A DNA stretch of 64,000 nt. It comes from Candidatus Methylomirabilia bacterium (GTDB lineage Bacteria > Methylomirabilota > Methylomirabilia > Rokubacteriales > CSP1-6). Shown in pieces: positions 1,435 to 51,663 of this stretch; positions within the stretch are counted from its first letter, which is position 1; the number at the start of each line of letters is the position of its first letter. The translations under genes and the position numbers were made by a program. The notes under the pieces are model-generated. The model did no database searches, was not told where the DNA came from, and saw only the letters and a list, made by a program, of their open reading frames with translations. The stretch is taken from contig JBHIAB010000001.1 in NCBI GenBank assembly GCA_046758385.1, forward strand, positions 2,608 through 66,607, in the 5' to 3' direction.

Positions 1435-2781
1435 CTAGGAGGCCAATCGCTCAGCTCCGCCCCGAGATTCCGCCACACCGACGAGCTCGTATCCCTCCAC
1501 CTCCACGATCCTGATGCGCGCGAACCTGCCGGGGACCAGGTGCTGATCGCGAAGGTAGACGATCCCGTCTATCTCAGGTGCCTGGCCGGTCGTGCGCCCC
1601 TCCCAGGAAAAGGCCGGATCCTCGCTCGGTCCATCCACCAGCACGGTCTGAACGCTTCCGACGAGTGCCTGCTGCCGCTCCCACAGGATCCGGTCCTGGT
1701 ATTCCTGGACGAGGTGGGCTCGCTCAGCTATCACCTCGGGCGCCACCTGGTCGGCGATCCCGGCGGCAGGCGTCCCTTCTTCCGCGGAGTAGCTGAAGAC
1801 CCCGAGCCGGTCGAAGCGGACCCCCTCGATGAACTCCAGCAGATTCTGAAACGCTTCCTCGCTCTCCCCCGGGAACCCCACCAGCACCGTGGTCCGAAGT
1901 GTGACCCCGACAATGGCTTCGCGAACAGCCTGGACGAGCTCCCGCATGCGCCGAGCCGTGACGCCGCGGCGCATGGCGCTGAGGATCCCATCGTCGGCGT
2001 GCTGGATCGGCATGTCCACGTAGGGGACAAGCCGCGCTTGCCGCCACTTGGCCATGAGCCGATCGTTGATGTGAGCGGGGTGGAGATACATGGGGCGAAT
2101 CCATGCAATCGGTGTGTCCGAGAGCGCCAGCAGCAGATCTCCGATGTCCCCGTTGGCGGGGAGATCCTTGCCATAGGCGAGAGTGTCCTGGGACACCAGG
2201 ATCGCTTCCTGAACTCCTCGCCGCGCCAGCCCCTCCACCTCGTCCACGATGTCCGCCAGCGGGCGGCTCCGATGGCGTCCGCGAAACTGCGGGATCGCGC
2301 AGAACGCGCATTCCATGTCGCACCCTTCGGCAATCTTCACGTAGGCGTACGGGCCCGGCTGGCTGAGAAGACGCGGGGTCTGGGCGTCGTAGAGATAGCC
2401 TGGCGGGGCGTTGGTGGCCCAGTCCTGACGGCCCGCCTCCTGCCGAACCAGATCCACGATCCGCTCGAGCCCGGCGGTGCCCAAGATCCCGTCCACTTCA
2501 GGAATCTCCTCGAGGATCTCTCGCCCGTAGCGTTGCGGGAGGCAGCCGGTCACGATGAGCGAGCGCGCGCGGCCTCGGCCCTTGAGCCGGGCCAGCTCCA
2601 GGATGGTGCCGACCGACTCCTCCCGCGCGCGGTCAATGAAGGCGCAGGTGTTGACGATAAGGCAATCGGCCTCCGTCGCTCGGGCGACGGCGGCGAAGCC
2701 TGCCCGGTTCAGCATTCCGAGCATCAGCTCAGAATCGACTTGGTTCTTGGGACAACCGAGGGTGGTGAGGTGAATCTTCAT
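1435..2781 (-). CDS. rimO: ribosomal protein S12 methylthiotransferase RimO (radical SAM, MTTase N domain + TRAM)
   Basis: 448 aa. N-term KIHLTTLGCPKNQVDSE matches RimO LGCPKNxVDSE. Radical-SAM CxxxCxxC (CAFCAI). C-terminal TRAM-like segment (EGRTTGQAPEIDGIVY). Confidence 0.7.
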   Translation of the reverse strand: MKIHLTTLGCPKNQVDSELMLGMLNRAGFAAVARATEADCLIVNTCAFIDRAREESVGTILELARLKGRGRARSLIVTGCLPQRYGREILEEIPEVDGILGTAGLERIVDLVRQEAGRQDWATNAPPGYLYDAQTPRLLSQPGPYAYVKIAEGCDMECAFCAIPQFRGRHRSRPLADIVDEVEGLARRGVQEAILVSQDTLAYGKDLPANGDIGDLLLALSDTPIAWIRPMYLHPAHINDRLMAKWRQARLVPYVDMPIQHADDGILSAMRRGVTARRMRELVQAVREAIVGVTLRTTVLVGFPGESEEAFQNLLEFIEGVRFDRLGVFSYSAEEGTPAAGIADQVAPEVIAERAHLVQEYQDRILWERQQALVGSVQTVLVDGPSEDPAFSWEGRTTGQAPEIDGIVYLRDQHLVPGRFARIRIVEVEGYELVGVAESRGGAERLAS

Positions 2782-6120: not shown

Positions 6121-6207
6121 TGCCCCCGTAGCTCAGCAGCAGGCTCAGCCATAGAGCACCCGCCTACTGAGCGGAAGGTCGCGCGTTCGAGGCCCGCCGG
6201 GGGCACC
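6121..6207 (+). tRNA. tRNA-like element (probable pseudo-tRNA on a tRNA-Arg(ACG)-like scaffold; anticodon loop CUACUGA = ACU; aberrant 19-nt D-loop; encoded CCA)
   Basis: Acceptor stem GCCCCCG/CGGGGGC, discriminator A + CCA. T-arm GCGCG-TTCGAGG-CCCGC. AGGTC variable loop. Anticodon stem CCCGC/GCGGA. The D-loop carries a ~10-12 nt internal duplication (GCTCAGCAG|GCTCAGCC). Confidence 0.4.
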
Positions 6208-6354
6208 AATTTCAACGGGGTATCCGGTGCGTCAACACCGAACACCCCCAACCCCGACACACCCCGCAGAGAGGAGTCGGGATTGGGGCCGCTAAGCCTC
6301 ACTTTTTTATCACTCTTGCGTGGGTGCTTGTCAAGGGTAAAGGCAAGGCCCACC

Positions 6355-7167
6355 ATGAACGTCCTGAACCCCGAAAGGAAGCTGGCTATTCTCTCCGCAT
6401 TGGTAGAAGGCAACTCCATGCGCTCTATTTCCCGCATGACCGGTGTCCACAAAACAACCATCTTGCGCTTGCTCAAGGAAGTGGGCGATAACTGTGTCAG
6501 GATTCTCGATGAGCGGATGCGCAGCCTGACCTGCCGCGTCATCGAGGGTGACGAGGTCTGGAGTTTCGTCAAAAAGAAGCAGCGGCGGCTGACCGCCGAG
6601 GAAAAGCTGAATCCCGAGTTTGGCGACCAGTACGCCTATATCGCCTTGGACCCGGACACGAAGCTCGTCCCGGTGTTCGTCGTCGGCAAGCGGGACGGTG
6701 CGACCACGTTCCGCTTCGTCCAGCAGCTTCGGCATCGGCTCGCCAATCGCATTCAGATAAGTACCGACGCCTTCCGCCCCTATGTGGAGGCCGTGGAGAG
6801 CGCCTTTGGGGCGGACATCGAATACGCGCAGTTGACCAAGGTCTACGAGGCCGAGAACCCAGGCCCTGGGTGCTATAGTCCGCCCAAAGTCACTGGCGTC
6901 CAGGTTACAGAGATCGCCGGCCGACCGGAGCCGAAGAAGACCTGCACGTCCTACGTCGAGCGGAACAACCTCACCATCCGCATGCAGCTTCGGCGCTTCA
7001 CGCGACTGACCAATGGGTTTAGCAAGAAGCTGGAGAACCTGAAGGCAGCTCTCGCTATTCACTTCGCTCATTACAACTTCTGCCGGATTCACGGCTCGCT
7101 CCGCGTGACCCCGGCGATGCCGCCAGGAGTCACGGACCGCATCTGGAAGTTGGAGGAACTGCTATGA
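6355..7167 (+). CDS. IS1-family transposase, single fused ORF (InsA-like HTH + InsB-like catalytic domain)
   Basis: 270 aa. HTH [23 protein letters not shown] resembles IS1 InsA. Catalytic part aligns to E. coli IS1 InsB blocks ([13 protein letters not shown] ~ DEQWGYVGAKSRQRW; YAYIALD...[11 protein letters not shown] ~ [48 protein letters not shown] ~ [33 protein letters not shown] ~ GHYLNIKHY). Terminal inverted repeats not located. Confidence 0.7.
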   Translation: [270 protein letters not shown]

Positions 7168-41306: not shown

Positions 41307-42020
41307 GTGAAAGGGTACTCACACATCCGGCTGGGCGTGGGCCTGCTGGGCGGCCTCATCGCCGTGCTTCTCGCGATGCTTCCCTCCCGAGGTACTCTCC
41401 TTAGCAGCAAGTTTCGCAACGCGAGTCCACCCCCTGTCACATGGACGGAGCTCCCGGTCTCAGGCCCGGAGAAGAAAGCAAGATCAGAAGAGTCGGCCTC
41501 CGTTGATCGGCGAGAGCCAGTCGTCTTACCCACGCCTAAGGCTACGTATACGCTTCATCTCGGCCCCTTCGTGATCGCGAGGGAGGCCGATGACGCCGAG
41601 GCCAGGCTGAACGAGCTCGGCATGTCCACTATGCGGTACCGTCAGCCTTCGAGCAGCGCCCTCTACGCCGTGAAAGTGGGCGAGTTCAGGACGCTTGCCC
41701 GAGCCATAGAGACCACGAAGCACCTCGCGCTCCGCCATCCCGCCCTGCGGCTAGGTAAGCTGGAGACTACGGCCGGGGGAGCATTGACCATCGTGGCGGA
41801 CAGCCTCTATCCCCTTCGGGAAGCCGTGGCCCTAGCCGTGGAGCTGCGAAAGGAAGGGTTTGCGGCTCAGGTCAAGACCGCGGAGGGAGCGGCCCCAGTG
41901 TTTGTCGTGCGGCCCAAGCAGACCTATGATCTCCAGACCGCCCAGGAGATGAGCCGGCAGTTCCACGCCCAACGCTTGCCGAACGCCGTCGTACTGGTGA
42001 AGCCCAGCCCGTCACGCTGA
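41307..42020 (+). CDS. membrane protein with SPOR-like domain(s)
   Basis: 237 aa. N-terminal TM helix. YAVKVGEFRTLARAIETTKHL... SPOR-like repeat. Confidence 0.5.
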   Translation: MKGYSHIRLGVGLLGGLIAVLLAMLPSRGTLLSSKFRNASPPPVTWTELPVSGPEKKARSEESASVDRREPVVLPTPKATYTLHLGPFVIAREADDAEARLNELGMSTMRYRQPSSSALYAVKVGEFRTLARAIETTKHLALRHPALRLGKLETTAGGALTIVADSLYPLREAVALAVELRKEGFAAQVKTAEGAAPVFVVRPKQTYDLQTAQEMSRQFHAQRLPNAVVLVKPSPSR

Positions 42021-42587
42021 GTCGCGAGGTTCATCTTTGAGCTGATGCCGCCAGATCGCCTGACGGATGGTGGCGAGAAACGGCTCGGCGTGGAAGGGTT
42101 TTTCGATAAAGGCGGAGGCCCCTTTATTCAGAGCCTCCTGAGCGAACTCTCGGGTCGCATAGGCCGTGATCATCACCACGTGCACCGCCGGGTTGGCACG
42201 CTTTGCAACCTCCAGGACCTGAAGCCCGCTCAGATGGGGCATCACGATGTCGCACACGATGACGTCAAAGGCACTGCTCTCTAGAACCCTCGCGGCCTCC
42301 CGGCTGTCACTGGTGGACTGGGGAGCATAGCCCGCCTGCTCGAGCAGATCCACCATGACCTCGAGGGTCTTGGGCTCGTCGTCAATCACCAGAATTCGGG
42401 GATTCTCCACCTTCTTCCCCCTGGCGTGATGCCTCCACCGCCATACTAACGTGACCCCGTCTCTGGGACAAAAAAACTCTTGAGGGATCCCGATCCTCAT
42501 CGTCCTGCCTTCCCAAACCCTGGAGCAGCTCACGACGCTCGTCGTCCTCTTCAAGTTCCTCCGGTAGCAAGCTCCCCCACCCCTCAT
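42012..42587 (-). CDS. response-regulator receiver-domain protein (CheY-like, stand-alone)
   Basis: RILVIDDEPKT...DVIVCDIVMP receiver motifs. True start probably downstream of the ORF-track M. Confidence 0.6.
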   Translation of the reverse strand: MRGGGACYRRNLKRTTSVVSCSRVWEGRTMRIGIPQEFFCPRDGVTLVWRWRHHARGKKVENPRILVIDDEPKTLEVMVDLLEQAGYAPQSTSDSREAARVLESSAFDVIVCDIVMPHLSGLQVLEVAKRANPAVHVVMITAYATREFAQEALNKGASAFIEKPFHAEPFLATIRQAIWRHQLKDEPRDSA

Positions 42588-43018
42588 CTTCCCGCCTCTC
42601 CCAAACCCCGAAGTAGCTCACGGCAGCGATCGAGGACGGAGCCCGCTTCCTCGACGGCGACGCGCGCCTCATCCTCCGTATACAGCCTTTGCGGAGGGGC
42701 CCCCGTTTCCTCGTCCCCGTAAAAGCTCACCTCCCGCTCGCGCCGAAGCCGACGGGAGATAGACGCGACCCGGTCGATCTCCTTCCCGAAGGGTTCTGGG
42801 AACTTCTCCCGGTGATCCTTCAGGATGATCCCCACATCGTGGATCCGGGGGACCTCGACGCCCGCGATCCTCAAAGCAGCTTTCAAGGCCAGCTCCACGA
42901 CCTCCTGCGACCTTCGGACGACCAGGTTCCACACTCCCCGCCGGTGAAGACCCTCCGCCTCCAGGAGAATGTCCCCTGCCTGGGTGAGAAGGCCCTCCGC
43001 CATCTCACGGTTCGTCAT
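42584..43018 (-). CDS. HEPN-domain protein (module 2)
   Basis: 144 aa helical. 4-bp overlap with upstream MNT. Paralogous in layout to 51664..52089. Confidence 0.65.
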   Translation of the reverse strand: MTNREMAEGLLTQAGDILLEAEGLHRRGVWNLVVRRSQEVVELALKAALRIAGVEVPRIHDVGIILKDHREKFPEPFGKEIDRVASISRRLRREREVSFYGDEETGAPPQRLYTEDEARVAVEEAGSVLDRCRELLRGLGEAGR

Positions 43019-43551
43019 AGCTCGAAGATCTCCCCGGGCACGTAGTCCGGTTTCAGCTCCCAGTAGCGGATCCTCCCCCGTTTCAAGCGTCGGGCCCCGA
43101 GGCGATCGAGGGAGCTCCGGAGATGCGCCAATATCGCCGAAAAGAACCCCTCACGGTCGAAGAGGATCACGGCATCCTCGACCAGGTCCAAGTAGAGAGG
43201 TGTGAGCCGCTCAGCCTCTTCGGGGCTCTTCAGAACAGGACTGAAGTCCGTGAGGACCCCTTGTTTGCGCAGCGCCGCTAACCGAGGGGCTAAAAGGTCA
43301 TCAGCTGCGCTCAGCCGCTCCTGCCGCGCAAGTCGTCCTCTGGGCAAATCCCTTGCGATGATGAGGAGGTCGATGTCAGACACGGAGGTCGCCTCCCGCC
43401 GGGCCACGGAGCCGAAGAGAACAACCGCGACGAGGGATTCCCCAAGGAGCCCCTTCAAAGCGTCGGTGTAATCAACGGCGAGCTCCCGGAGAGCCCGGTT
43501 GTGTTCCGCTGTCTCCATCCCGCTCTTCCCCTGGTCCAAGAGTTCCCTCAC
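43015..43551 (-). CDS. MNT nucleotidyltransferase (module 2)
   Basis: 178 aa. LFGSVARREATSVSDIDLLII motif. C-terminus YWELKPDYVPGEIFEL nearly identical to the 52086..52604 paralog (YWVLKPDLRPGEIIEL). Confidence 0.7.
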   Translation of the reverse strand: MRELLDQGKSGMETAEHNRALRELAVDYTDALKGLLGESLVAVVLFGSVARREATSVSDIDLLIIARDLPRGRLARQERLSAADDLLAPRLAALRKQGVLTDFSPVLKSPEEAERLTPLYLDLVEDAVILFDREGFFSAILAHLRSSLDRLGARRLKRGRIRYWELKPDYVPGEIFEL

Positions 43552-43583: not shown

Positions 43584-43870
43584 TCAGATAGGCCTTACGA
43601 AAGCGAAGTGTTTGAACGGGGGAAGCGGCGGCTCGACAAGCGTGGCCAGTTCGACCAGGCTCAAGGCTCCTTGCCGCGGCTCTGCCTCGTAAAGCACCCG
43701 GGCATCGCGCAGGATCTCAAAAGCCAGCGTTGGCTTCAGGCGCGGTGAAAACAGGTGAATATCAGGCTTACACGCCGGGACCAAGGCCTGAACCTCTCGT
43801 AGGGCGAGGAGGGGATCATCTGGACCCGCGGCGAACACGAGAAGATCGAGATCGGAGATTGCCGTCCCTT
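43584..43870 (-). pseudogene. N-terminally truncated MNT nucleotidyltransferase remnant
   Basis: Frame open from TAA at ~43871. Reads SFIPCQGTAISDLDLLVFAAGPDDP... The SD.DLLV half of the MNT motif is present, but the GSxxRG half and any ATG are missing. Confidence 0.4.
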
Positions 43871-43994
43871 GACACGGAATGAACGATTATTCGCTGGATG
43901 GCTTCAGTTGACCCCCGGCTAAAGACGCTTCCTCCATCTCTTCCTTCACGCCGGTCATGGCGAGGCCCGAGGGTGTAGCTGCCGAGACAGAGGA

Positions 43995-44435
43995 TCAGCG
44001 GACACGCTCGTCGATCCGGCCCAGGATCTCCGTGATCCCCTGGAGAATCGGCCGGGTGGCCTCCTGGGTTTCCCGGATGAGCTGGCGGGTGGCCTCAGTC
44101 TCACGAGTGATCAGCTCCTGGGTCTCCCGGCTCATCTGCTGGAGAAGCTGGCGATTGCCTTCGGCCTCACGAACGATCAACTCCTGGGTCTCCCGGATGA
44201 GCTGGCGGCTGGCCTCCGTCTCACGAGTGATCAGCTCCTGGATCTCCCGGCTCATCTGCTGGAGAAGCTGGCGATTGCCTTCGGCCTCACGAACGATTAG
44301 CTCCTGGGTCTCCCGAATGAGGCCGCCGATCTCTCGCCGGGTCAGGCGGCCATTGTAGACCGAGAAGACGCCGACAATGAGCCCGAAGATGGTGATGCCG
44401 GACGCGAAGAGGGTGAAGATCTCAACAAAACTCAT
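43995..44435 (-). CDS. membrane-anchored coiled-coil protein with two 40-aa tandem repeats
   Basis: Start taken at MSFVEIFTLFASGITIFGLIVGVF (TM helix). Then LIRETQELIVREAEGNRQLLQQMSRE(I/T)QELITRETEA(S/T)RQ appears twice. Encoded by a near-perfect 120-bp tandem DNA repeat. Confidence 0.5.
   Translation of the reverse strand: MSFVEIFTLFASGITIFGLIVGVFSVYNGRLTRREIGGLIRETQELIVREAEGNRQLLQQMSREIQELITRETEASRQLIRETQELIVREAEGNRQLLQQMSRETQELITRETEATRQLIRETQEATRPILQGITEILGRIDERVR
44062..44330. repeat. 120-bp tandem direct repeat (~2.2 copies, ~1 mismatch between full copies) inside CDS 43995..44435
   Basis: 44101-44160 vs 44221-44280 differ at one base. 44062-44100 vs 44182-44220 and 44161-44181 vs 44281-44301 extend the period. 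Confidence 0.85.
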
Positions 44436-44458
44436 GGGTCTTCGCCCCTTCGCACATT

Positions 44459-44710
44459 CTAGGGCGAGCAAGGGTGCCAAGCAAGTTCATGGAGGAAGCC
44501 TTTCCCGAACCCGACACGTTCCGTCTCCACCAAGGGAGAGAACTCAAACATTCGATCGATCAGGCGCTTCTCATCCTCCCCTCGCAAGCCGACGAAGATG
44601 TCGTAATCGCTCCCCCGGGACCAATCCCCTCTGGCCATCGAGCCGAAGAGGACCACAAACTCCAGCTCCTCGCCACGCCTGTCCAGCAGATGCCGCAGAA
44701 AGCGCTCCAA
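44459..44710 (-). CDS. MNT nucleotidyltransferase (solo, TTG start)
   Basis: LFGSMARGDWSRGSDYDIFV motif. No ATG in frame upstream up to TAA. No HEPN partner directly downstream. Confidence 0.55.
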   Translation of the reverse strand: MERFLRHLLDRRGEELEFVVLFGSMARGDWSRGSDYDIFVGLRGEDEKRLIDRMFEFSPLVETERVGFGKGFLHELAWHPCSP

Positions 44711-44916: not shown

Positions 44917-45780
44917 TCACATGGCGACTCTGGCTGAGGTCTTCAGGATGATCTGCCGAGAGACCTGAGTGCCTGGGACGACCGGAATAGTGACCACGCG
45001 GGTGACTGTCGTGGCCCCGGACGTGTGAGTGGCGCTCACCACGTCGACTCCGCCGGGGATTGTAAATCTAAAGGGCGCGTTGCCGTCGGTGGCCGTCTCT
45101 TTCGTATCGTTCAGGACTTGCTCGCCGTCTTGTGCCGAGAAGATTTCGACGGTCAGGCCATTCGGCTGGGGGATGTCGTTGACGATGACGGTCACGATCA
45201 GCGTGCTGGTAACCTGGACCGGTGACTGAGAGTTAGCCAGGCCGGGAGGTCTGACCGGGAATTCGATGTCGTCCCCCGTACCCAGCGCGCCGTCCGGCCC
45301 TGCGCTAATGATCTGCCCGGCCTGGTTTGTCTGCCCCTGGGTAGGGTCAGCCGTGTAGGAATATGGCCGACCCCAAGCGTCCACAAAGAGTTCGTTCGGG
45401 TCAAATTGGCCAAGGAGGTACGGGCCGCGCCACCCGGTGCCGACCCCGCCCACATGCTCGTTGGTACCGTCGGCCGTGTGGAAGGCCGGTTGGTTCCCCT
45501 GGACCAAAAGCTCGGATAAGGTCGTAGGCAGCCGTCCCATGTCCCCCAGGTAGCCGAACTTCCCTCTCTCCGGATTCCCCACGATCGCTCTGAAAATCTC
45601 TTCGATCTCGGTCCGGGTCGCCTCCTCGTTGGAGGACTGAAAGGCCTGGAACGCCAGCGGAGTGATGAGGGCAGCCAAGATGGCCACGACGGCGAGCCCG
45701 ATCACTATCTCGATCAGGGTGAAACCATGCCTTCGCCAGAAGGGGAAACCTCTCAACCACAAGATGGGCAAACGCATCAT
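44917..45780 (-). CDS. type II secretion/type IV filament pseudopilin, GspG-like (paralog 1)
   Basis: Prepilin N-terminus ...RRHG|FTLIEIVIGLAVVAILAALITP (Glu+5). GspG-domain motifs WRGPYL, DAWGRPYSY, SAGPDGALGTGDDIEF. Confidence 0.7.
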   Translation of the reverse strand: MMRLPILWLRGFPFWRRHGFTLIEIVIGLAVVAILAALITPLAFQAFQSSNEEATRTEIEEIFRAIVGNPERGKFGYLGDMGRLPTTLSELLVQGNQPAFHTADGTNEHVGGVGTGWRGPYLLGQFDPNELFVDAWGRPYSYTADPTQGQTNQAGQIISAGPDGALGTGDDIEFPVRPPGLANSQSPVQVTSTLIVTVIVNDIPQPNGLTVEIFSAQDGEQVLNDTKETATDGNAPFRFTIPGGVDVVSATHTSGATTVTRVVTIPVVPGTQVSRQIILKTSARVAM

Positions 45781-45785
45781 TCCCT

Positions 45786-46622
45786 TCAATCCGGAATTGC
45801 GCACGGGTTCGCGGTGACCGAGACAACGGCACCGGTCAACATCCGGACCTCCTTGAGGACCGACTGTCCAGCGTGGACCGGCACGATGACGGTGCGGGCG
45901 ACGGTGCTGCACGGCCCACCCCCGCCGCCCCCCTGTCCGGTGTGGGCGACCACGAGGGCGTGTAGCCCATGGGTCACGTTCTCGAACACGAAGCCGTCAA
46001 ACCTCAAACCACCCGGCAGGTGCTTCCGGGTGGGAGTGACAGCCTGCTCTCCGTCAAGCGGCGAGTAAAGTTTCGCCGTAGCGCCCAGCGGGCCTGGGAT
46101 CTGATTTCCGAGGACTGAGACGAACAGCCTCCCCGTGGTGGGCGGCGCGTGAAGGGGGAACACGATGTCATCCGTCGTTCCCGAGACGCCGTCCGGCCCC
46201 AGGCTGATGATCTGGCCATTTTGAAAATCGAAGGGCCGACCCCAGGAGTCCAGGAAGAGGTCGGCGGTGGAGAAGAAGCTTTTCAGATATGGGCCTCGCC
46301 AGCCGGTCCCGAGCTTCCCGACGTGCTCGATGCCGCCGTCGGCCGTGTGGAAGGCGAGTTGATTGCCCTGTTCGACGAGCTCGGAAAGGCTCGTGGGCAG
46401 CCGCCCCATGTCCCCCAGGTAGCCGAACTCGCCCTGGGCGGGATTCCCAAAGATGGCCCGGAAGATCTCTTCTGCCTTCTCTTGCGTCTCTCGCTCCCTG
46501 TCGGCTTCGACGAGGCCGAAGAGGTTCGGGGCCATGAGCCCTATCACGGCGGCCAACACAGCAAGAACGATGACCACCTCGATGAGGGTGAACCCCTGAG
46601 AACGATCTCTTGGCTGCTTCAT
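45786..46622 (-). CDS. pseudopilin, GspG-like (paralog 2)
   Basis: MKQPRDRSQG|FTLIEVVIVLAVLA; WRGPYL, DSWGRPFDF, SLGPDGVSGTTDDIVFP. Gly-rich C-terminus. Confidence 0.7.
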   Translation of the reverse strand: MKQPRDRSQGFTLIEVVIVLAVLAAVIGLMAPNLFGLVEADRERETQEKAEEIFRAIFGNPAQGEFGYLGDMGRLPTSLSELVEQGNQLAFHTADGGIEHVGKLGTGWRGPYLKSFFSTADLFLDSWGRPFDFQNGQIISLGPDGVSGTTDDIVFPLHAPPTTGRLFVSVLGNQIPGPLGATAKLYSPLDGEQAVTPTRKHLPGGLRFDGFVFENVTHGLHALVVAHTGQGGGGGGPCSTVARTVIVPVHAGQSVLKEVRMLTGAVVSVTANPCAIPD

Positions 46623-48364
46623 GGCTGGAGAGGCGGATTCAGAACGCATGAGAACGTGATGGTTGGGCGCCCGCTGATCCTGTTCGGCTTGGGCTTCTTC
46701 GGCTTCTTGCCCTTCTTATGGTCGTCATCATCGTCGTCGTCGTGTCCTTTCCCATGCCCACCACTCGAGGACGCGTTTTCCGCTAGGACGACGCCGGTGA
46801 TGGTGGGGCGGCCGCTGATACGGATCCGCCCATGCGCGGCGACGAGTCCGGTGAGAGGTTTGCTGGAGCTGATCTTGATCTCGTCGCCGGCCACCAACAG
46901 CGTATCGGTGAGGTGGGCGGTCATTGTGGGGCGTCCCGAGACTTTGATGTCTCCTGTGGCGAGTACAGTGACCCTCCACGATAACGCGCCGCTCCCCGCG
47001 CGACCCGAAATCTTGGCGTCCCCCTCGAAGAAATAGGTTCCATCGACGGCGGTCTTGCCGCTGAACGTCCACTTGGCAGGGTGCCCCGGCCGATATTTCC
47101 AGCCCTGGAACTTCTGTCCTTTGTGCAACGTTGCGAGGTGCTTCGGCGGGTCGTCGCCGTCGAAGACCTCCCCATTGGATTTCAGGTGAAACACCTGCCC
47201 GACGGGAAGATCGACCTTGGCGGCGGTCAGGAAGTCAGCCGGGTCGATCGCGGGGATGTCTTTTGGATCGAATCCTCCTCCGACACCGGGCCCGCCTATA
47301 TCTACCTTCTTTGAAGCCGAGAACTTCCCGCTGGCAGTAGCGTCCCCGGCGATCGACACGCGATCACGAATCTTGAGATCTCCATTCGCGTGGACGTTCC
47401 CACACTGTCCATTGATCGTTGCCCGGTCGTCGATCTTGAGATCCCCGTTCACCAGTATGGCGTCGGTCACGTTGAAGGCAATTAGCCCCACCGGGATCTT
47501 GACGTCGAGCCGGTTGACGATGTTCGACTTCAGGGCCACGTGCAAGGCTTCTGTCAGGGGGCGCCCGCCGAACTCGATCTCGGCGAACCTGACCCCCGCG
47601 GGCACAGAATCGAAGACGATGGTGACTTCGGATCCGTCGGGCCCCACCACCGTGGTCGGCTGACTGACGAGACTCACCTGCTGGCCGTCCTCCGGGAAGA
47701 AGAGGGTCGCGGTGACGTTCTTCGCGGGGTTCTTGCTCCTGCCCACAGTGACGGTCAAGAAGAGATGCCCTGCGTCCTGAAATGGTTCGGAGCTGATGTC
47801 GTCGCCGGTATCGAACAGGCCGTCTGGCCCAGCGCTGGTGATCTGACCGATCCGCACGGTCAGGGAGACGCCTCCGGAGGTCGGATCGGTGGACGGTACC
47901 GTGACCTCGGGGCAGGTGTAGCGAAAGCGGTTGCCCCAGCCGTCCTCCAGATGCTCATTCGTGAAAATCATCTCCTTGAAGTACGGCCCCTGCCACCCCA
48001 TCCCGAGCCCGCCCCGATTCGCGGTGTCGAAAAGCGCGGTCGAAGGGTTGAAACTGGAATCGCAGAGGGTGTGAGGCCCTTGGAGATTGTTCAGTTCTTC
48101 CAGGCTCTTCGGGACCCGGCCCACGTCGCCGATGAAGCCGAAGGTTGCCTCCCCGGGGATCCCGGCGATCACCTCCACTAGCTTGGCCAGCTTGCGGCGG
48201 GTCGCTTCTTCGTTTGAGACCGTGATGTCGAGAACCAGCGGGAGCGCCAGGGCGGCCCCCGTCGCAGCGAGGGCGAGGAGCACCAGCAGCCCGAGGAGCG
48301 TGAAGCCCCTGGTCCCTACGCTTCCTCCCACCTCATCGGTCACCCGTCGAGAGCCAAGTTCCAC
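46619..48364 (-). CDS. giant pseudopilin-like protein (581 aa) with beta-helix-like repeat domain and acidic/basic tail
   Basis: N-term ...VGTRG|FTLLGLLVLLALAATGA (Gly not Glu at +5). WQGPYF, DGWGNRFRY, SAGPDGLFDTGDDIS GspG motifs. Then repeated GDLKI/ISGRPTIT units. Tail GHGKGHDDDDDDDHKKGKKPKKPKPN. Confidence 0.6.
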   Translation of the reverse strand: MELGSRRVTDEVGGSVGTRGFTLLGLLVLLALAATGAALALPLVLDITVSNEEATRRKLAKLVEVIAGIPGEATFGFIGDVGRVPKSLEELNNLQGPHTLCDSSFNPSTALFDTANRGGLGMGWQGPYFKEMIFTNEHLEDGWGNRFRYTCPEVTVPSTDPTSGGVSLTVRIGQITSAGPDGLFDTGDDISSEPFQDAGHLFLTVTVGRSKNPAKNVTATLFFPEDGQQVSLVSQPTTVVGPDGSEVTIVFDSVPAGVRFAEIEFGGRPLTEALHVALKSNIVNRLDVKIPVGLIAFNVTDAILVNGDLKIDDRATINGQCGNVHANGDLKIRDRVSIAGDATASGKFSASKKVDIGGPGVGGGFDPKDIPAIDPADFLTAAKVDLPVGQVFHLKSNGEVFDGDDPPKHLATLHKGQKFQGWKYRPGHPAKWTFSGKTAVDGTYFFEGDAKISGRAGSGALSWRVTVLATGDIKVSGRPTMTAHLTDTLLVAGDEIKISSSKPLTGLVAAHGRIRISGRPTITGVVLAENASSSGGHGKGHDDDDDDDHKKGKKPKKPKPNRISGRPTITFSCVLNPPLQP

Positions 48365-48432
48365 CGCGCATCTACGATCTTTCGCTGGCAGGCCCTATCT
48401 CCCCTGACCTTATCCTCTCCCCCGGTCTATCG

Positions 48433-49059
48433 CTATTTGAGCCGGCTGCAGATGTCATCTCCGCCTGGAGCCGGCCCCGAATCCGCCGGGGAGTCGGGAT
48501 CGGTGTCGATGGTCCCATCCGGCCCCGCCGAGCAGGTCCACACCACCTTCGCCGGAGAGTCTGCGGGATTCGCATTGCCGATGTTTACCAGATAGCGGTT
48601 CCCCCAGGGGTCCTCAGTGATTTTCTCCAGGTACGGCCCCCGCCAACGAAACCGACCGTTCGAGGAGTATGGGGTGGTCCCGGGGGCGTTCTTGATCAGA
48701 TGATCCTCAAGATCGTCGGCCTTTCCCGGTGTGAACCATTTGTTGTTACCGGGGGGGTTGTCGATAGGATCGTTGCCCGGCCCTTGGAGGATGTCGAAGT
48801 CAGGGGTTCCTGTGGTCCGCGTGCCATCCGTATAGATCGGGAAATGGCCCACGTCTCGGGTGAGGCGGATGATGCTCGCCCCGATGACCTTGACATCTCC
48901 CTCGGCCTTTTCTCTCTTGGCATCTTCCACGTAGCTGATCACCATAGGAGTGATCGCCCCCAGGAGCAGGCCGATCACCGCCAGGACGACGATCATCTCC
49001 AAGAGGCTGATTCCCAACTCCCCTCCGAACTTCCGTCTCCTCATGCTTATCAGCTCCAT
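48433..49059 (-). CDS. gspG: pseudopilin, closest to canonical GspG
   Basis: G|ISLLEMIVVLAVIGLLLGAITP; WRGPYLEKITEDPWGNRYLV; SAGPDGTIDTDPD. Confidence 0.7.
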   Translation of the reverse strand: MELISMRRRKFGGELGISLLEMIVVLAVIGLLLGAITPMVISYVEDAKREKAEGDVKVIGASIIRLTRDVGHFPIYTDGTRTTGTPDFDILQGPGNDPIDNPPGNNKWFTPGKADDLEDHLIKNAPGTTPYSSNGRFRWRGPYLEKITEDPWGNRYLVNIGNANPADSPAKVVWTCSAGPDGTIDTDPDSPADSGPAPGGDDICSRLK

Positions 49060-49094
49060 TCCTTCAAGGATTGGAAAGTCTCGCGGGCTCCCGA

Positions 49095-49832
49095 TCAGGC
49101 TCCGGGCAAGATCGCGCTCGCCCTTCCCAGGTTCTTCCCTATATCATCAGATCCGGCGGCGACACTTTCCCGGTTCAGAGGCGTCTCGAGCAAACGGTCT
49201 GGGCCAACGGAGAGGATCCAGCCGTTGCCCAACACCCGCATGATCTCTGATAATCCCGCCTGACCCCGAATCGCGACCTCGCCGCCAAAGATCAGGGGTA
49301 GAACATTGATGATGTAGGCCCGGTCCCATGGGTCACTGATGACGGGTTCCATGTAGGGGCCCTGCCAGTCGGGAAAGTCGACCACACTCGGCCTTCTGAC
49401 CAGGTAGTCGTTGATGTCCAGGGCAGTGCTCGGAGAAAAATTCACGCAGCTCCGGCCGATAAAAACGGTGGCATCGAAGAAGCCGATGTTCAAGAAGTCC
49501 GGGAGGGGCGTGCCGAGCGTCGGATCTATAGATGTCGGCACCCCAGATTGGAGGAAGCACGGTCCGGCCCCCCCGACCACCCCGATCTTTTCCTCCCCGG
49601 GCCACTGGCGCGTGTCCTGGCGGAACTTCATCATGGCGTTGGCAAGGGTCAACAGCTCTCTGGCAGCCTTGGTCTCCTTCGCCTCCTCGATCCGATCCAT
49701 CGTCATGGGAATGGCTACGGACGCGACGATCGTGGTCATCGCGACGACCGCCGTAGTCTCGTAGAGGGTCACCCCGCGGCAATCCCTGAAGCGGGCGAGA
49801 AGGAATCTGAGCGTTCTGACGATGCGTCTCAT
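49095..49832 (-). CDS. pseudopilin, GspG-like (paralog 5)
   Basis: ...DCRG|VTLYETTAVVAMTTIVASVAIP; WQGPYMEPVISDPWDRAYIINV; SVGPDRLL. Confidence 0.7.
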   Translation of the reverse strand: MRRIVRTLRFLLARFRDCRGVTLYETTAVVAMTTIVASVAIPMTMDRIEEAKETKAARELLTLANAMMKFRQDTRQWPGEEKIGVVGGAGPCFLQSGVPTSIDPTLGTPLPDFLNIGFFDATVFIGRSCVNFSPSTALDINDYLVRRPSVVDFPDWQGPYMEPVISDPWDRAYIINVLPLIFGGEVAIRGQAGLSEIMRVLGNGWILSVGPDRLLETPLNRESVAAGSDDIGKNLGRASAILPGA

Positions 49833-50029
49833 GGCGTTGTCTTCTCGACATCTCTAACTGAGAGCGCACTCAAATGCGTCACGATTATAGCTGCACCCAA
49901 AGAATGGGGCCGGGGGGAGAGGAAGCGATGCCGCTCCCCCCGGTAAAGTCCCCCAAACGCCTTCTTCCAAGAAGTACTGGCGCGGCGCTGCTAAGACCCG
50001 CCTCGTGTCTTATGCGCTACTACTTGTCC

Positions 50030-50701
50030 CTAGTTTTGGACGATCTTCTTGCCGAGGCTCCGGCCGATGTCGTTACCATTCGGATCCAAGTCCGAATCTA
50101 CAAAGTCGGTGGTCAGGGTCTGGTCGGATCCACCCGAGATGACCCACCCGTAGCCCAAGTAATTGTGGGCACCCAAGTCCTCGGCGTCAAACAACGGGCG
50201 GGGGTTAAAGATATAGGCACGGCCCCAGGGATCCGCGGTGATCGGATCCATGTAGGGTCCATTCCAGTTGGAATAGCCTGAGGGCCCAGTGCTCGCCGAC
50301 AAGTAGGTGTTGAGGTCCACGGGCGGAGCGCAGGTATTATTGCCAAGGCAGGTGTTGGGAGTCAGGGTGAGGTCTGTCAGAGCGGGCAGTGGGGCGCTGC
50401 CGCTAACGAGGAAGATTGTTTGGTCTGGGATCCCATCGTTGCCGCTGGTATCCATCTCGAGTTCCCCAGGCCACTTTCCCGTGTCGTTGAAGAAGCTAAA
50501 GGCAGCCTTGAAGATGGTTTCCGTCTCCTGCTTCGCGGCAGTGCCCTCGGCGCTCTGAATCTGCTGGAGGGCCACAGGCACCGCGACGGCGGCGATAATC
50601 CCCGCCATGGCGACCGCCGCCGTGATCTCGTAGAGGCTGATGCCTCGTGAATCCCTGAGGTGCCTCAGCAACGCCTTGAACATTCTGGCCATCCGTCCCA
50701 T
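50030..50701 (-). CDS. pseudopilin, GspG-like (paralog 6)
   Basis: ...DSRG|ISLYEITAAVAMAGIIAAVAVP; WNGPYMDPITADPWGRAYIF. RBS GGAGGG 7 nt upstream of ATG 50701. Confidence 0.7.
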   Translation of the reverse strand: MGRMARMFKALLRHLRDSRGISLYEITAAVAMAGIIAAVAVPVALQQIQSAEGTAAKQETETIFKAAFSFFNDTGKWPGELEMDTSGNDGIPDQTIFLVSGSAPLPALTDLTLTPNTCLGNNTCAPPVDLNTYLSASTGPSGYSNWNGPYMDPITADPWGRAYIFNPRPLFDAEDLGAHNYLGYGWVISGGSDQTLTTDFVDSDLDPNGNDIGRSLGKKIVQN

Positions 50702-50753
50702 CTTCTCACCCTCCTTGTCTCGAGAGCTTCTCTCGAGATGTTATGGGTTTGCG

Positions 50754-51524
50754 TTAACTGACGCCAGACTGAACCTTCTCAATCCGCTTGCCAAGATTTT
50801 GCCCGACATCGTCTGTCGCAGGTGCGAGCACGGAGTCGGTCAGCCTTGTCTGGAGCAGCCGATCCGGCCCCACACTGAGGACCCAGGCATATCCCAGATC
50901 CCCCCCGGTCTCGATGGCCCCGGTAACGGCGTCCGGCGTGCCCGCGGCCCCGACACCGGCTGTGATCGCCTCGGCGAACATCAAGGGGAGGACATTGATG
51001 ACGTACGCCTGATTCCAGGGGTCAGCCGTAATGGGCTCCATGTAGGGACCCTGCCAGCTGGGGTAATCCACCGGGTTAGGCTTTCTGACCAGGTAGTCGT
51101 TGATGTTCAGGGCATTGGTGTGGCTGAAGGTCGCGCAGAGAGATGCCTGAGGCAGAAAGTCGCCGGTATCGATCGTTCCGATCTCAGCGCGCGTCAGCGT
51201 GGGAAGAAGCGCGCTCGTCTGTGGATCACTTCCTGGCCTCCCCGTCTGGAGGAAGCACGATGTGCCATCGGTCCTGATCTCCACCTCGCCGGGCATCCGG
51301 CCTGTGTCCTCGAAGAAGCTCGCGATAGCTTTGGTGATGATGGTCACTTCCTGGGCGGCCTTGGCACTCTTGGCTGCCTCTATCTTGTCCAGCGCCACCG
51401 GCAGAGCCACCGCCGCGAGGATGGCGGTCATGGCGACGACCGCCGTGGTCTCGTAAAGCGTGACCCCGCGGACATCCTTGAGGTGTCGGATAAGACCCCT
51501 GAGCAATCTCGTTACGGGCTTCAT
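50754..51524 (-). CDS. pseudopilin, GspG-like (paralog 7, promoter-proximal)
   Basis: Start chosen at MKPVTRLL (51524), preceded by GGAGG and the sigma-54 promoter. ...DVRG|VTLYETTAVVAMTAILAAVALP; WQGPYMEPITADPWNQAYVINV; SVGPDRLL. Confidence 0.7.
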   Translation of the reverse strand: MKPVTRLLRGLIRHLKDVRGVTLYETTAVVAMTAILAAVALPVALDKIEAAKSAKAAQEVTIITKAIASFFEDTGRMPGEVEIRTDGTSCFLQTGRPGSDPQTSALLPTLTRAEIGTIDTGDFLPQASLCATFSHTNALNINDYLVRKPNPVDYPSWQGPYMEPITADPWNQAYVINVLPLMFAEAITAGVGAAGTPDAVTGAIETGGDLGYAWVLSVGPDRLLQTRLTDSVLAPATDDVGQNLGKRIEKVQSGVS

Positions 51525-51555
51525 GTCCTTTGTCCTCCGCCGGTTGAGGCAGATA

Positions 51556-51571
51556 GCAATCATCGGGCCAG
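51556..51571 (-). promoter_or_regulatory. sigma-54 (RpoN) -24/-12 promoter
   Basis: Minus-strand reading CTGGCCCGATGATTGCT against consensus TGGCACG-N4-TTGCW. GG..GC spacing exactly 12. About 20-nt leader with GGAGG before ATG 51524. Confidence 0.5.
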
Positions 51572-51663
51572 CGTTAAGTGCTTGATTTCTTGGGGAAAAC
51601 GCCTCGAACAATAAGAGGAGAAAGCTACAAAATTTGGGAGTTCCCTACAAATCTTGAGGATCA

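Follow-up and report, generated by a model that had tools for sequence, protein, structure and literature searches.

What does a gene built from a tandem repeat encode, and does it work with the genes beside it? The question is raised by a minus-strand gene (43995-44435) in the 64,000-nucleotide (nt) stretch of Candidatus Methylomirabilia DNA analysed here, which we call the window. The gene carries a tandem repeat of 120 base pairs (bp) and is flanked by MNT genes, as the original prediction described. That prediction, made from the letters alone, proposed a membrane-anchored coiled-coil protein in the place of the HEPN partner expected downstream of an MNT gene. We find that 43995-44435 is a genuine protein-coding gene on the minus strand. 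It belongs to a family of small membrane proteins whose relatives gain and lose repeat units in whole helical turns, and it is not a HEPN substitute.

The repeat and the helix it builds

The coding sequence (43995..44435, minus strand) was established from the open reading frame (ORF) list, from its translation, from the ends of its homologues and from the fact that the sense frame is the only one open in all 18 family genes examined. It runs from an ATG at 44433-44435 to a TGA at 43995-43997, and its 146-residue translation is exactly the one given before. A membrane helix comes first, repeats follow, and a conserved tip closes the protein. The N-terminal transmembrane helix (residues 3-27, FVEIFTLFASGITIFGLIVGVFSVY; 44355..44429, minus strand), recognised by hydrophobicity and conservation, has a mean hydrophobicity of 1.02 across its 25 residues. 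S12 and F17 are invariant, T15, I16, G18, I20, V21, G22, F24, S25 and Y27 are conserved at 90% or above, and G18xxxG22 forms a near-invariant GxxxG. No basic residue stands ahead of the helix, whereas R30, R33 and R34 come after it; by the positive-inside rule, an N-out/C-in topology is therefore predicted.

Directly behind the membrane lies the conserved juxtamembrane motif NGRLTRR (residues 28-34; 44334..44354, minus strand), in which N28, G29, R30 and T32 are invariant in alignment A1; distant members keep NGRxTR(R/K). The C-terminal tip (ILQGITEILGRIDERVR, residues 130-146; 43998..44048, minus strand) stands out by conservation and by heptad-spaced hydrophobic residues. L131 and R144 are invariant there, and I130, E136, I137, L138, R140, I141, D142, E143, V145 and R146 are conserved at 90% or above. 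AlphaFold2, run with the family alignment, returned one continuous helix over residues 3-145 with a mean pLDDT (predicted local distance difference test) of 94.6. In this model the 116 residues behind the membrane would form a cytoplasmic helix of about 17 nm. The homologues and the model together bear out the description of a membrane-anchored protein that continues into a long, repeat-built helix. The protein contains no histidine.

The tandem repeat occupies 44061-44321 within the minus-strand gene and was characterised by Tandem Repeats Finder, by a repeat search and by codon-level comparison. Tandem Repeats Finder reports 2.2 copies at the 120-bp period with 95% matches, 0 indels and a score of 473, by far the strongest tandem array in the window. 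Two full copies (44061-44180 and 44181-44300, 95% identical) are followed by a 21-nt partial third copy, and the repeat search also gave an inner sub-period of 54/66 nt, which corresponds to 18 and 22 residues. At the best register, 115 of 120 nt are the same. Compared codon by codon, the two 120-nt copies show 6 nt differences spread over 5 codons. Three of these codons are synonymous in the minus frame (ATT/ATC, CTA/TTG and ACG/ACT), and the other two encode conservative replacements (I65/T105 and S76/T116). The near-perfect repeat is thus real and recent, while the earlier figure of about one mismatch between copies is too low.

At the protein level the repeat unit is 40 residues long, present as residues 39-78 and 79-118, and is composed of 11+11+11+7 residues, equal to 11 helical turns. 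One homologue (P0005) has exactly one copy of the homologous unit, and the window allele is therefore a duplication derivative, which arose by a recent in-frame duplication of the 11-turn unit. With a distance of 109 residues from the NGR motif to the tip, it is among the longest of the family.

The unit had been called heptad-like, and here the measurements disagree. A spectral peak at 3.64 residues marks the hydrophobic period of the window protein and equally that of the family sum; in the latter, power is 79.8 at 3.64 versus 14.5 at 3.5, about five times lower at the heptad value. Canonical heptad spacing is confined to the last ~17 residues. The rest is a mixture of 7- and 11-residue elements of the hendecad type, with a period of ~3.6-3.67 kept over the helix and length classes quantised at 3.65. 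The commonest family unit has 18 residues (7+11), equal to 5 turns. On a helical wheel, the apolar face has Thr (36%) and some Glu (~10%) at its centre and is flanked on both sides by Arg, with Glu/Gln at the back. The chains may form oligomeric coiled coils.

Relatives and their length classes

A search of 5.8 billion proteins returned 47 homologues of 80-158 residues, with E-values down to 1e-39, and the window protein aligns with them across 100% of its length. Nearly all are metagenomic, and they are mostly named 'hypothetical protein', with a few unrelated automatic names. All share the start MSF(L/V)E(I/L)F and the end ...ILxRITEILGRIDERVR. Their common plan is a 25-residue hydrophobic helix, the motif YNGRxTRRE, a run of 7- and 11-residue units (consensus RETQELIAREAEATRQLI) and the tip ILGRIDERVR. 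The window protein combines both conserved ends with a phase-keeping repeat region between them, the features by which we delimit the new family. An exhaustive profile search of 1.84 billion representatives gave 134 clusters at E <= 1e-3. All but one are small (35-206 residues), and those that were read follow the family plan; the exception is a 634-residue protein matched in its repeat region only. Members from low-GC organisms are Lys-rich in place of Arg-rich. Among GTDB representative genomes there were 3 matches only, in metagenome-assembled genomes of an Acidobacteria member, of a Rokuibacteriota member (a fragment) and of an unclassified organism. The family members come from uncultured groundwater and subsurface bacteria. 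On one contig (L010) a second, shorter paralogue of 58 residues (6346-6522, plus strand), consisting of the membrane helix and a short tail, lies 16 nt past the family gene; it is the only tandem pair seen in the family.

Database profiles do not claim the protein. Its best Pfam match is ZapG-like (PF06295) over residues 18-119, with 16.4 bits against a cut-off of 33.5 (E = 0.0097). NCBIfam gave no match near its cut-offs, PADLOC and PHROGs gave no significant match, and a sequence-profile search of the PDB found none. A Foldseek search of the PDB with the AlphaFold2 model likewise found no match, a lone helix not being searchable by fold. When 65 distant members were compared with Pfam, weak matches appeared to DUF948 (7 members), ZapG-like (6), ATP-synt_B (3), EzrA (2) and RNase_Y_N (2), the best E-values being no better than about 1e-4. 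All of these are families of N-terminally anchored cytoplasmic helical proteins. Viral contigs contained no relatives and thus gave no sign of a phage origin, and a literature word search for comparable repeat proteins produced nothing relevant. By these searches the family is uncatalogued, while its architecture is a familiar one, that of N-terminally anchored cytoplasmic proteins of the coiled-coil type.

We measured the distance from NGR to ILGRIDERVR in 53 distinct sequences and found 20 distinct values between 43 and 121 residues. Expressed at 3.64 residues per turn, the distances above the shortest are 1.10, 2.20, 3.02, 4.12, 5.22, 6.04, 7.14, 7.97 and so on up to 18.13 and 20.05 turns; the window protein stands at 18.13. 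The phase concentration R of the length classes is 0.80 at a best period of 3.65 residues per turn. Among 5000 random length sets there was not one as high, even with the period scanned from 3.4 to 3.9; the 95th percentile of R in random sets was 0.33, or 0.43 with scanning.

Near-identical pairs are set apart by clean indels of 4, 7, 11, 18, 22 and 36 residues. Outside the indel, identity is 100% for P0008 and P0012 (22 residues), 100% for P0014 and L012 (36 residues), 99% for P0024 and L013 (11 residues) and 95% for P0026 and P0027 (4 residues). Duplications are also visible in the DNA of the relatives: four copies of 54 nt at 92-97% identity in L012, 33-nt units in L013 (98%), L019 (93%) and L022 (90%), and a 21-nt unit in L010 (86%). 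The recent duplications among the homologues are independent of each other and involve units of 7, 11, 18 and 40 residues. One case is a pair of contigs, L012 from a JGI sample and L028 from an ENA sample: they match at 100% over 357 nt, as far as the repeat, where a clean indel of 108 nt (2 x 54) separates them. This difference is a copy-number polymorphism at one locus, to be read with the reservation that repeats may be collapsed in assemblies of short reads. Among relatives, gains and losses of units are frequent and independent, and the net change always keeps whole turns between junction and tip. The suggestion that the repeat is a hotspot of copy-number change is therefore upheld across the relatives.

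Proposed role of the helix and its genomic setting

The role that we favour, at about even odds, is that of a cytoplasmic homo-oligomeric stalk of tunable length. Parallel chains would be held together by three elements: the GxxxG membrane helix, the near-straight 7/11 stripe and the heptad-like tip. In the resulting rod, the distance of the conserved tip from the membrane and its azimuth would both be fixed, and the rod could serve as a tether or scaffold for a putative partner. In this it would resemble the ZapG/YhcB handle and the hendecad coiled coil of ATP synthase subunit b, both described below. Slippage or unequal recombination between the DNA repeats would alter the length of the rod, and selection would remove out-of-phase products and keep whole-turn changes only. 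The neighbouring MNT genes would be unrelated cargo of a region rich in toxin-antitoxin genes.

Several observations weigh against such a stalk. The predicted structure is that of a monomer, and the layout of the helical wheel, with its Thr/Glu apolar centre and Arg flanks, also fits an amphipathic helix of the class-A type. The related loci show no conserved gene neighbour that points to a partner. Exact look-ups of the window protein in other assemblies, in versions of 146 and 161 residues, found none, and the two-copy state lacks an independent match; collapse during assembly could account for some of the length differences among short-read contigs. As for the gene as a unit, a consensus scan called no promoter, since the site described below agrees at 8 of 12 positions, one short of the threshold of 9. 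The scan found no terminator either, and the folding of the 3' region is no stronger than that of shuffled sequences (z = 0.12).

Instead of forming a rod, the long helix might be a tethered amphipathic helix that runs along the cytoplasmic face of the membrane, the repeat number setting the area covered. It would then cover or stabilise the membrane in the manner of the 11-mer repeats of apolipoproteins, alpha-synuclein, perilipins and LEA proteins. A period of 3.64-3.67 is typical of 11-mer surface-binding helices, and the measured 3.64 fits it. The wheel is class-A-like as well, with Arg at both polar/apolar borders, Glu/Gln at the back and Thr at the apolar centre; yet Glu makes up ~10% of that centre, while bacterial inner membranes are anionic. 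Other properties speak against lipid binding too. The window protein has no match to Apolipoprotein (PF01442), its mean hydrophobicity of 0.02-0.39 is low, and it carries a net charge of -3, with 18-residue windows zero or negative in all but one. The lipid-binding discriminant D is below 0.68 in 16 of 17 windows. One JGI record does name a homologue 'gas vesicle protein', and on contig L031 the next gene but one encodes a tail-anchored 11-mer repeat protein with a sub-threshold Apolipoprotein match, both of which would suit a surface-bound helix. The conserved GxxxG and the heptad-like tip, by contrast, suggest helix-helix contacts, and we consider an in-plane helix rather improbable.

The neighbour on L031 merits a description of its own. 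It is a protein of 99 residues (1727-2026, plus strand), encoded ~260 nt downstream of P0005, in which four 11-residue repeats (EDMNQRFAELR) are followed by a C-terminal membrane helix. Its architecture mirrors that of the family, and it has no counterpart in the window.

A stronger form of the stalk hypothesis would make length itself the function. The gene would be a contingency-type locus at which slippage generates whole-turn length variants at the population level, with junction-to-tip distances of ~6.5 to 18 nm; the inner membrane and a putative cytoplasmic partner at the tip would be kept apart by a distance that depends on this length, and the polymorphism itself would be selected. We regard this molecular ruler as unlikely.

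It is very unlikely, in our view, that the locus is misread, either in that the plus-strand ORF at 43957-44358 is the real gene or in that the assembly itself produced the second 120-nt copy, for instance by joining two strain variants in tandem. The plus-strand ORF, 133 residues long and rich in W, S and R, shares its third codon positions with the sense frame. Codon-periodicity tests and the GC content of third positions (GC3) therefore cannot separate the strands, and we rejected a choice of strand on such statistics. Conservation does separate them. In each of the 18 family genes examined, the plus frame is broken by 1-4 stops whose positions vary, and it leaves out the membrane helix, the most conserved segment; the sense protein keeps its start, its stop and both its ends across the family. 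The earlier dismissal of this ORF as a mirror artefact was correct.

As to the repeat copies, the exact protein is without a record elsewhere; exact look-ups of the MNT and of one pseudopilin found none, and the HEPN look-up alone found independent contigs. SRR29324603 and SRR29324601 contain this locus as well. A short-read contig of the same organism (L029), with the same HEPN/MNT/response-regulator neighbourhood, starts (positions 1-60) inside a stretch identical between the 120-nt copies, where assemblers struggle, and reproduces exactly the junction from copy 2 into the C-terminus. This break fits a true repeat in a short-read assembly, without proving two copies. Against an artefact stand the synonymous differences at three of five codons between the copies and the similar in-frame duplications that arose independently in several relatives; with one copy or two, moreover, the length stays in helical phase.

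A conserved promoter-like region of its own precedes the gene. About 75 nt upstream of the ATG are conserved in six loci (the window, L010, L012, L016, L018 and L023) despite differing upstream genes, which include MNT in the window, an unrelated 191-residue gene, PIN and an unrelated ORF (L018). The alignment of these loci places a putative sigma-70-type promoter at 44456..44484 on the minus strand: a -35 element TTGCTT (44479-44484), a 17-nt spacer and a -10 element TAGAAT (44456-44461), with 20 nt between it and the ATG. TTGC and TAnnAT, at the 17-nt spacing, remain unchanged in all six loci. In L001 (5967-6003) and L020 (upstream of 119), a promoter-like pair TTGACA / TAAGCT ends 6 nt before the ATG, which suggests a leaderless mRNA in that sub-lineage, unlike the 20-nt leader of the window gene.

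The conserved region also affects how the upstream neighbour is read. The MNT ORF (44459-44710, minus strand, 83 residues) ends 23 nt from the gene. Its final ~19 codons (GFGKGFLHELAWHPCSP) lie within the conserved 5' region of the family gene, and the same peptide appears in a spurious intergenic ORF of L010; the TAG stop of the MNT ORF is the TAG of the -10 box. This MNT is therefore probably 3'-truncated, its HEPN partner lost. On the other side of the gene lies a degraded MNT remnant (43584-43889, minus strand), in which an in-frame TAA (43887-43889) stands just before the nucleotidyltransferase motif ...GTAISDLDLLVF, and the remaining 84-residue ORF has no family match. Beyond this remnant follows a canonical MNT/HEPN pair: at 42012-43551 (minus strand), MNT (178 residues), HEPN (144 residues) and a response regulator (191 residues) are chained by 4-nt overlaps, as if in an operon. 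The chain is also present in two independent Logan contigs, L029 and L030. The true HEPN (42584-43018) scores 69.2 bits against PF05168, whereas the 146-residue protein gives no match to that profile and, being free of histidine, does not carry the Rx4-6H motif of HEPN toxins.

Elsewhere the family gene keeps varied company. In five loci it starts 2-4 nt past the alaS stop, with a convergent rlmI-like gene downstream in several; in others it follows PIN (L012, L028) or HicAB (L019) or lies near a PIN pair (L025). Further neighbours are metabolic genes, serine/threonine kinases and a pseudopilin cluster, and some copies stand alone. That the protein partners the upstream MNT, as a membrane-acting toxin replacing HEPN or as the MNT target, is hardly credible: the gene does lie downstream of the MNT ORF on the same strand, in the usual HEPN place, and several homologues adjoin toxin-antitoxin genes, but an adjacent MNT is absent from every related locus examined whose sequence continues beyond the gene, the gene's own conserved promoter overlaps the end of an MNT ORF that itself looks truncated, and neither defence libraries nor viral contigs contain a match. 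Its own conserved promoter and unrelated neighbourhoods thus speak against the HEPN slot originally assigned to the gene; it sits in a rearranged patch rich in toxin-antitoxin genes, with no detectable functional link to those that adjoin it.

Other features of the window were recorded in passing. Seven tandem paralogous pseudopilin-like genes (44917-51611, minus strand) have prepilin-type N-termini and are 24-52% identical to one another. A link between the family and pseudopilins, considered for the clusters in the window and in L001, was rejected as coincidence: the two clusters share no homology and flank the gene on different sides. One pseudopilin-like protein of 581 residues carries, near its C-terminus (46690-46745, minus strand), poly-Asp followed by Lys/Pro-rich low-complexity sequence (HDDDDDDDHKKGKKPKKPKPN), which Tandem Repeats Finder reports as GTC x7.7. 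The only Rfam match in the window is a single tRNA gene (6122-6205, plus strand), and no RNA family lies near the locus of the 146-residue gene.

These results add an uncatalogued family of small membrane proteins, with 134 clusters among 1.84 billion representatives and none in Pfam or NCBIfam. They also provide an unusually clean natural data set, in which helix geometry, at 3.65 residues per turn, acts as a filter on the gain and loss of repeats: only whole-turn changes survive, with units of 7, 11, 18, 22 and 40 residues. Such data may be of use for the design rules of coiled coils and for the annotation of small ORFs in GC-rich metagenomes, where mirror ORFs share wobble positions. No new toxin-antitoxin partner is revealed, and the whole-turn length variation, neat as it is, would not greatly surprise a specialist.

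Comparison with known systems

Several known proteins resemble the family in part. DUF948 (PF06103), YtxH-like proteins and the N-terminal regions of EzrA and RNase Y likewise combine an N-terminal anchor with a cytoplasmic helical region. The window protein is unmatched by DUF948, whose gathering score is 37.2; the best of the seven weak matches among distant members has E = 1.3e-4, and one listed score is 16.2 bits (P0098). None of the matches to these families reaches its gathering score. This likeness may come from composition and architecture only.

The 11-mer amphipathic helices of exchangeable apolipoproteins, alpha-synuclein, perilipins and group 3 LEA proteins share with the family a periodicity of ~11/3, the expansion and contraction of their repeats, and an arrangement of Arg and Glu like that of class A. 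They differ in having no transmembrane anchor and a binding face that is more hydrophobic or basic.

Streptococcal M proteins, the stalks of trimeric autotransporters, Lpp and YscP/FliK are helical rods whose length changes through gain or loss of repeats, and in some of them length is functional. These proteins are extracellular, periplasmic or secreted, whereas the family protein, by far the smaller, has a predicted cytoplasmic location, and for it a ruler role is only proposed.

Similar in architecture is ZapG/YhcB (PF06295, DUF1043) of gamma-proteobacteria, a protein of ~130 residues whose N-terminal membrane helix leads directly into a long continuous cytoplasmic helix. It self-associates: in the crystal it is a coiled-coil tetramer, for which the role of a ~120 A handle at the inner membrane face has been proposed (PMC8163987). 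The family proteins have the same predicted layout, an N-terminal membrane helix followed by one long helix. The six distant members with weak ZapG-like matches reach at best E = 2.9e-4, and none was reported as passing the gathering score. ZapG occurs in other taxa and is without tandem repeats, YNGRxTRR, ILGRIDERVR or reported length variation.

Subunit b of the F-type ATP synthase (PF00430), like other peripheral-stalk proteins, also begins with an N-terminal membrane helix and continues as a long helix with an 11-residue, hendecad repeat. In subunit b the hendecads form a right-handed, nearly straight dimeric coiled coil that acts as a rigid stalk, and substitutions are tolerated only if the hendecad is kept (PMC6131620). 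The window protein does not match PF00430, the three weak matches among distant members reach at best E = 0.0016, and there are no atp genes in the neighbourhood of the window gene. Unlike subunit b, the family protein is without a delta-binding C-terminal domain, is far more variable in length and carries recent tandem repeats in its DNA.

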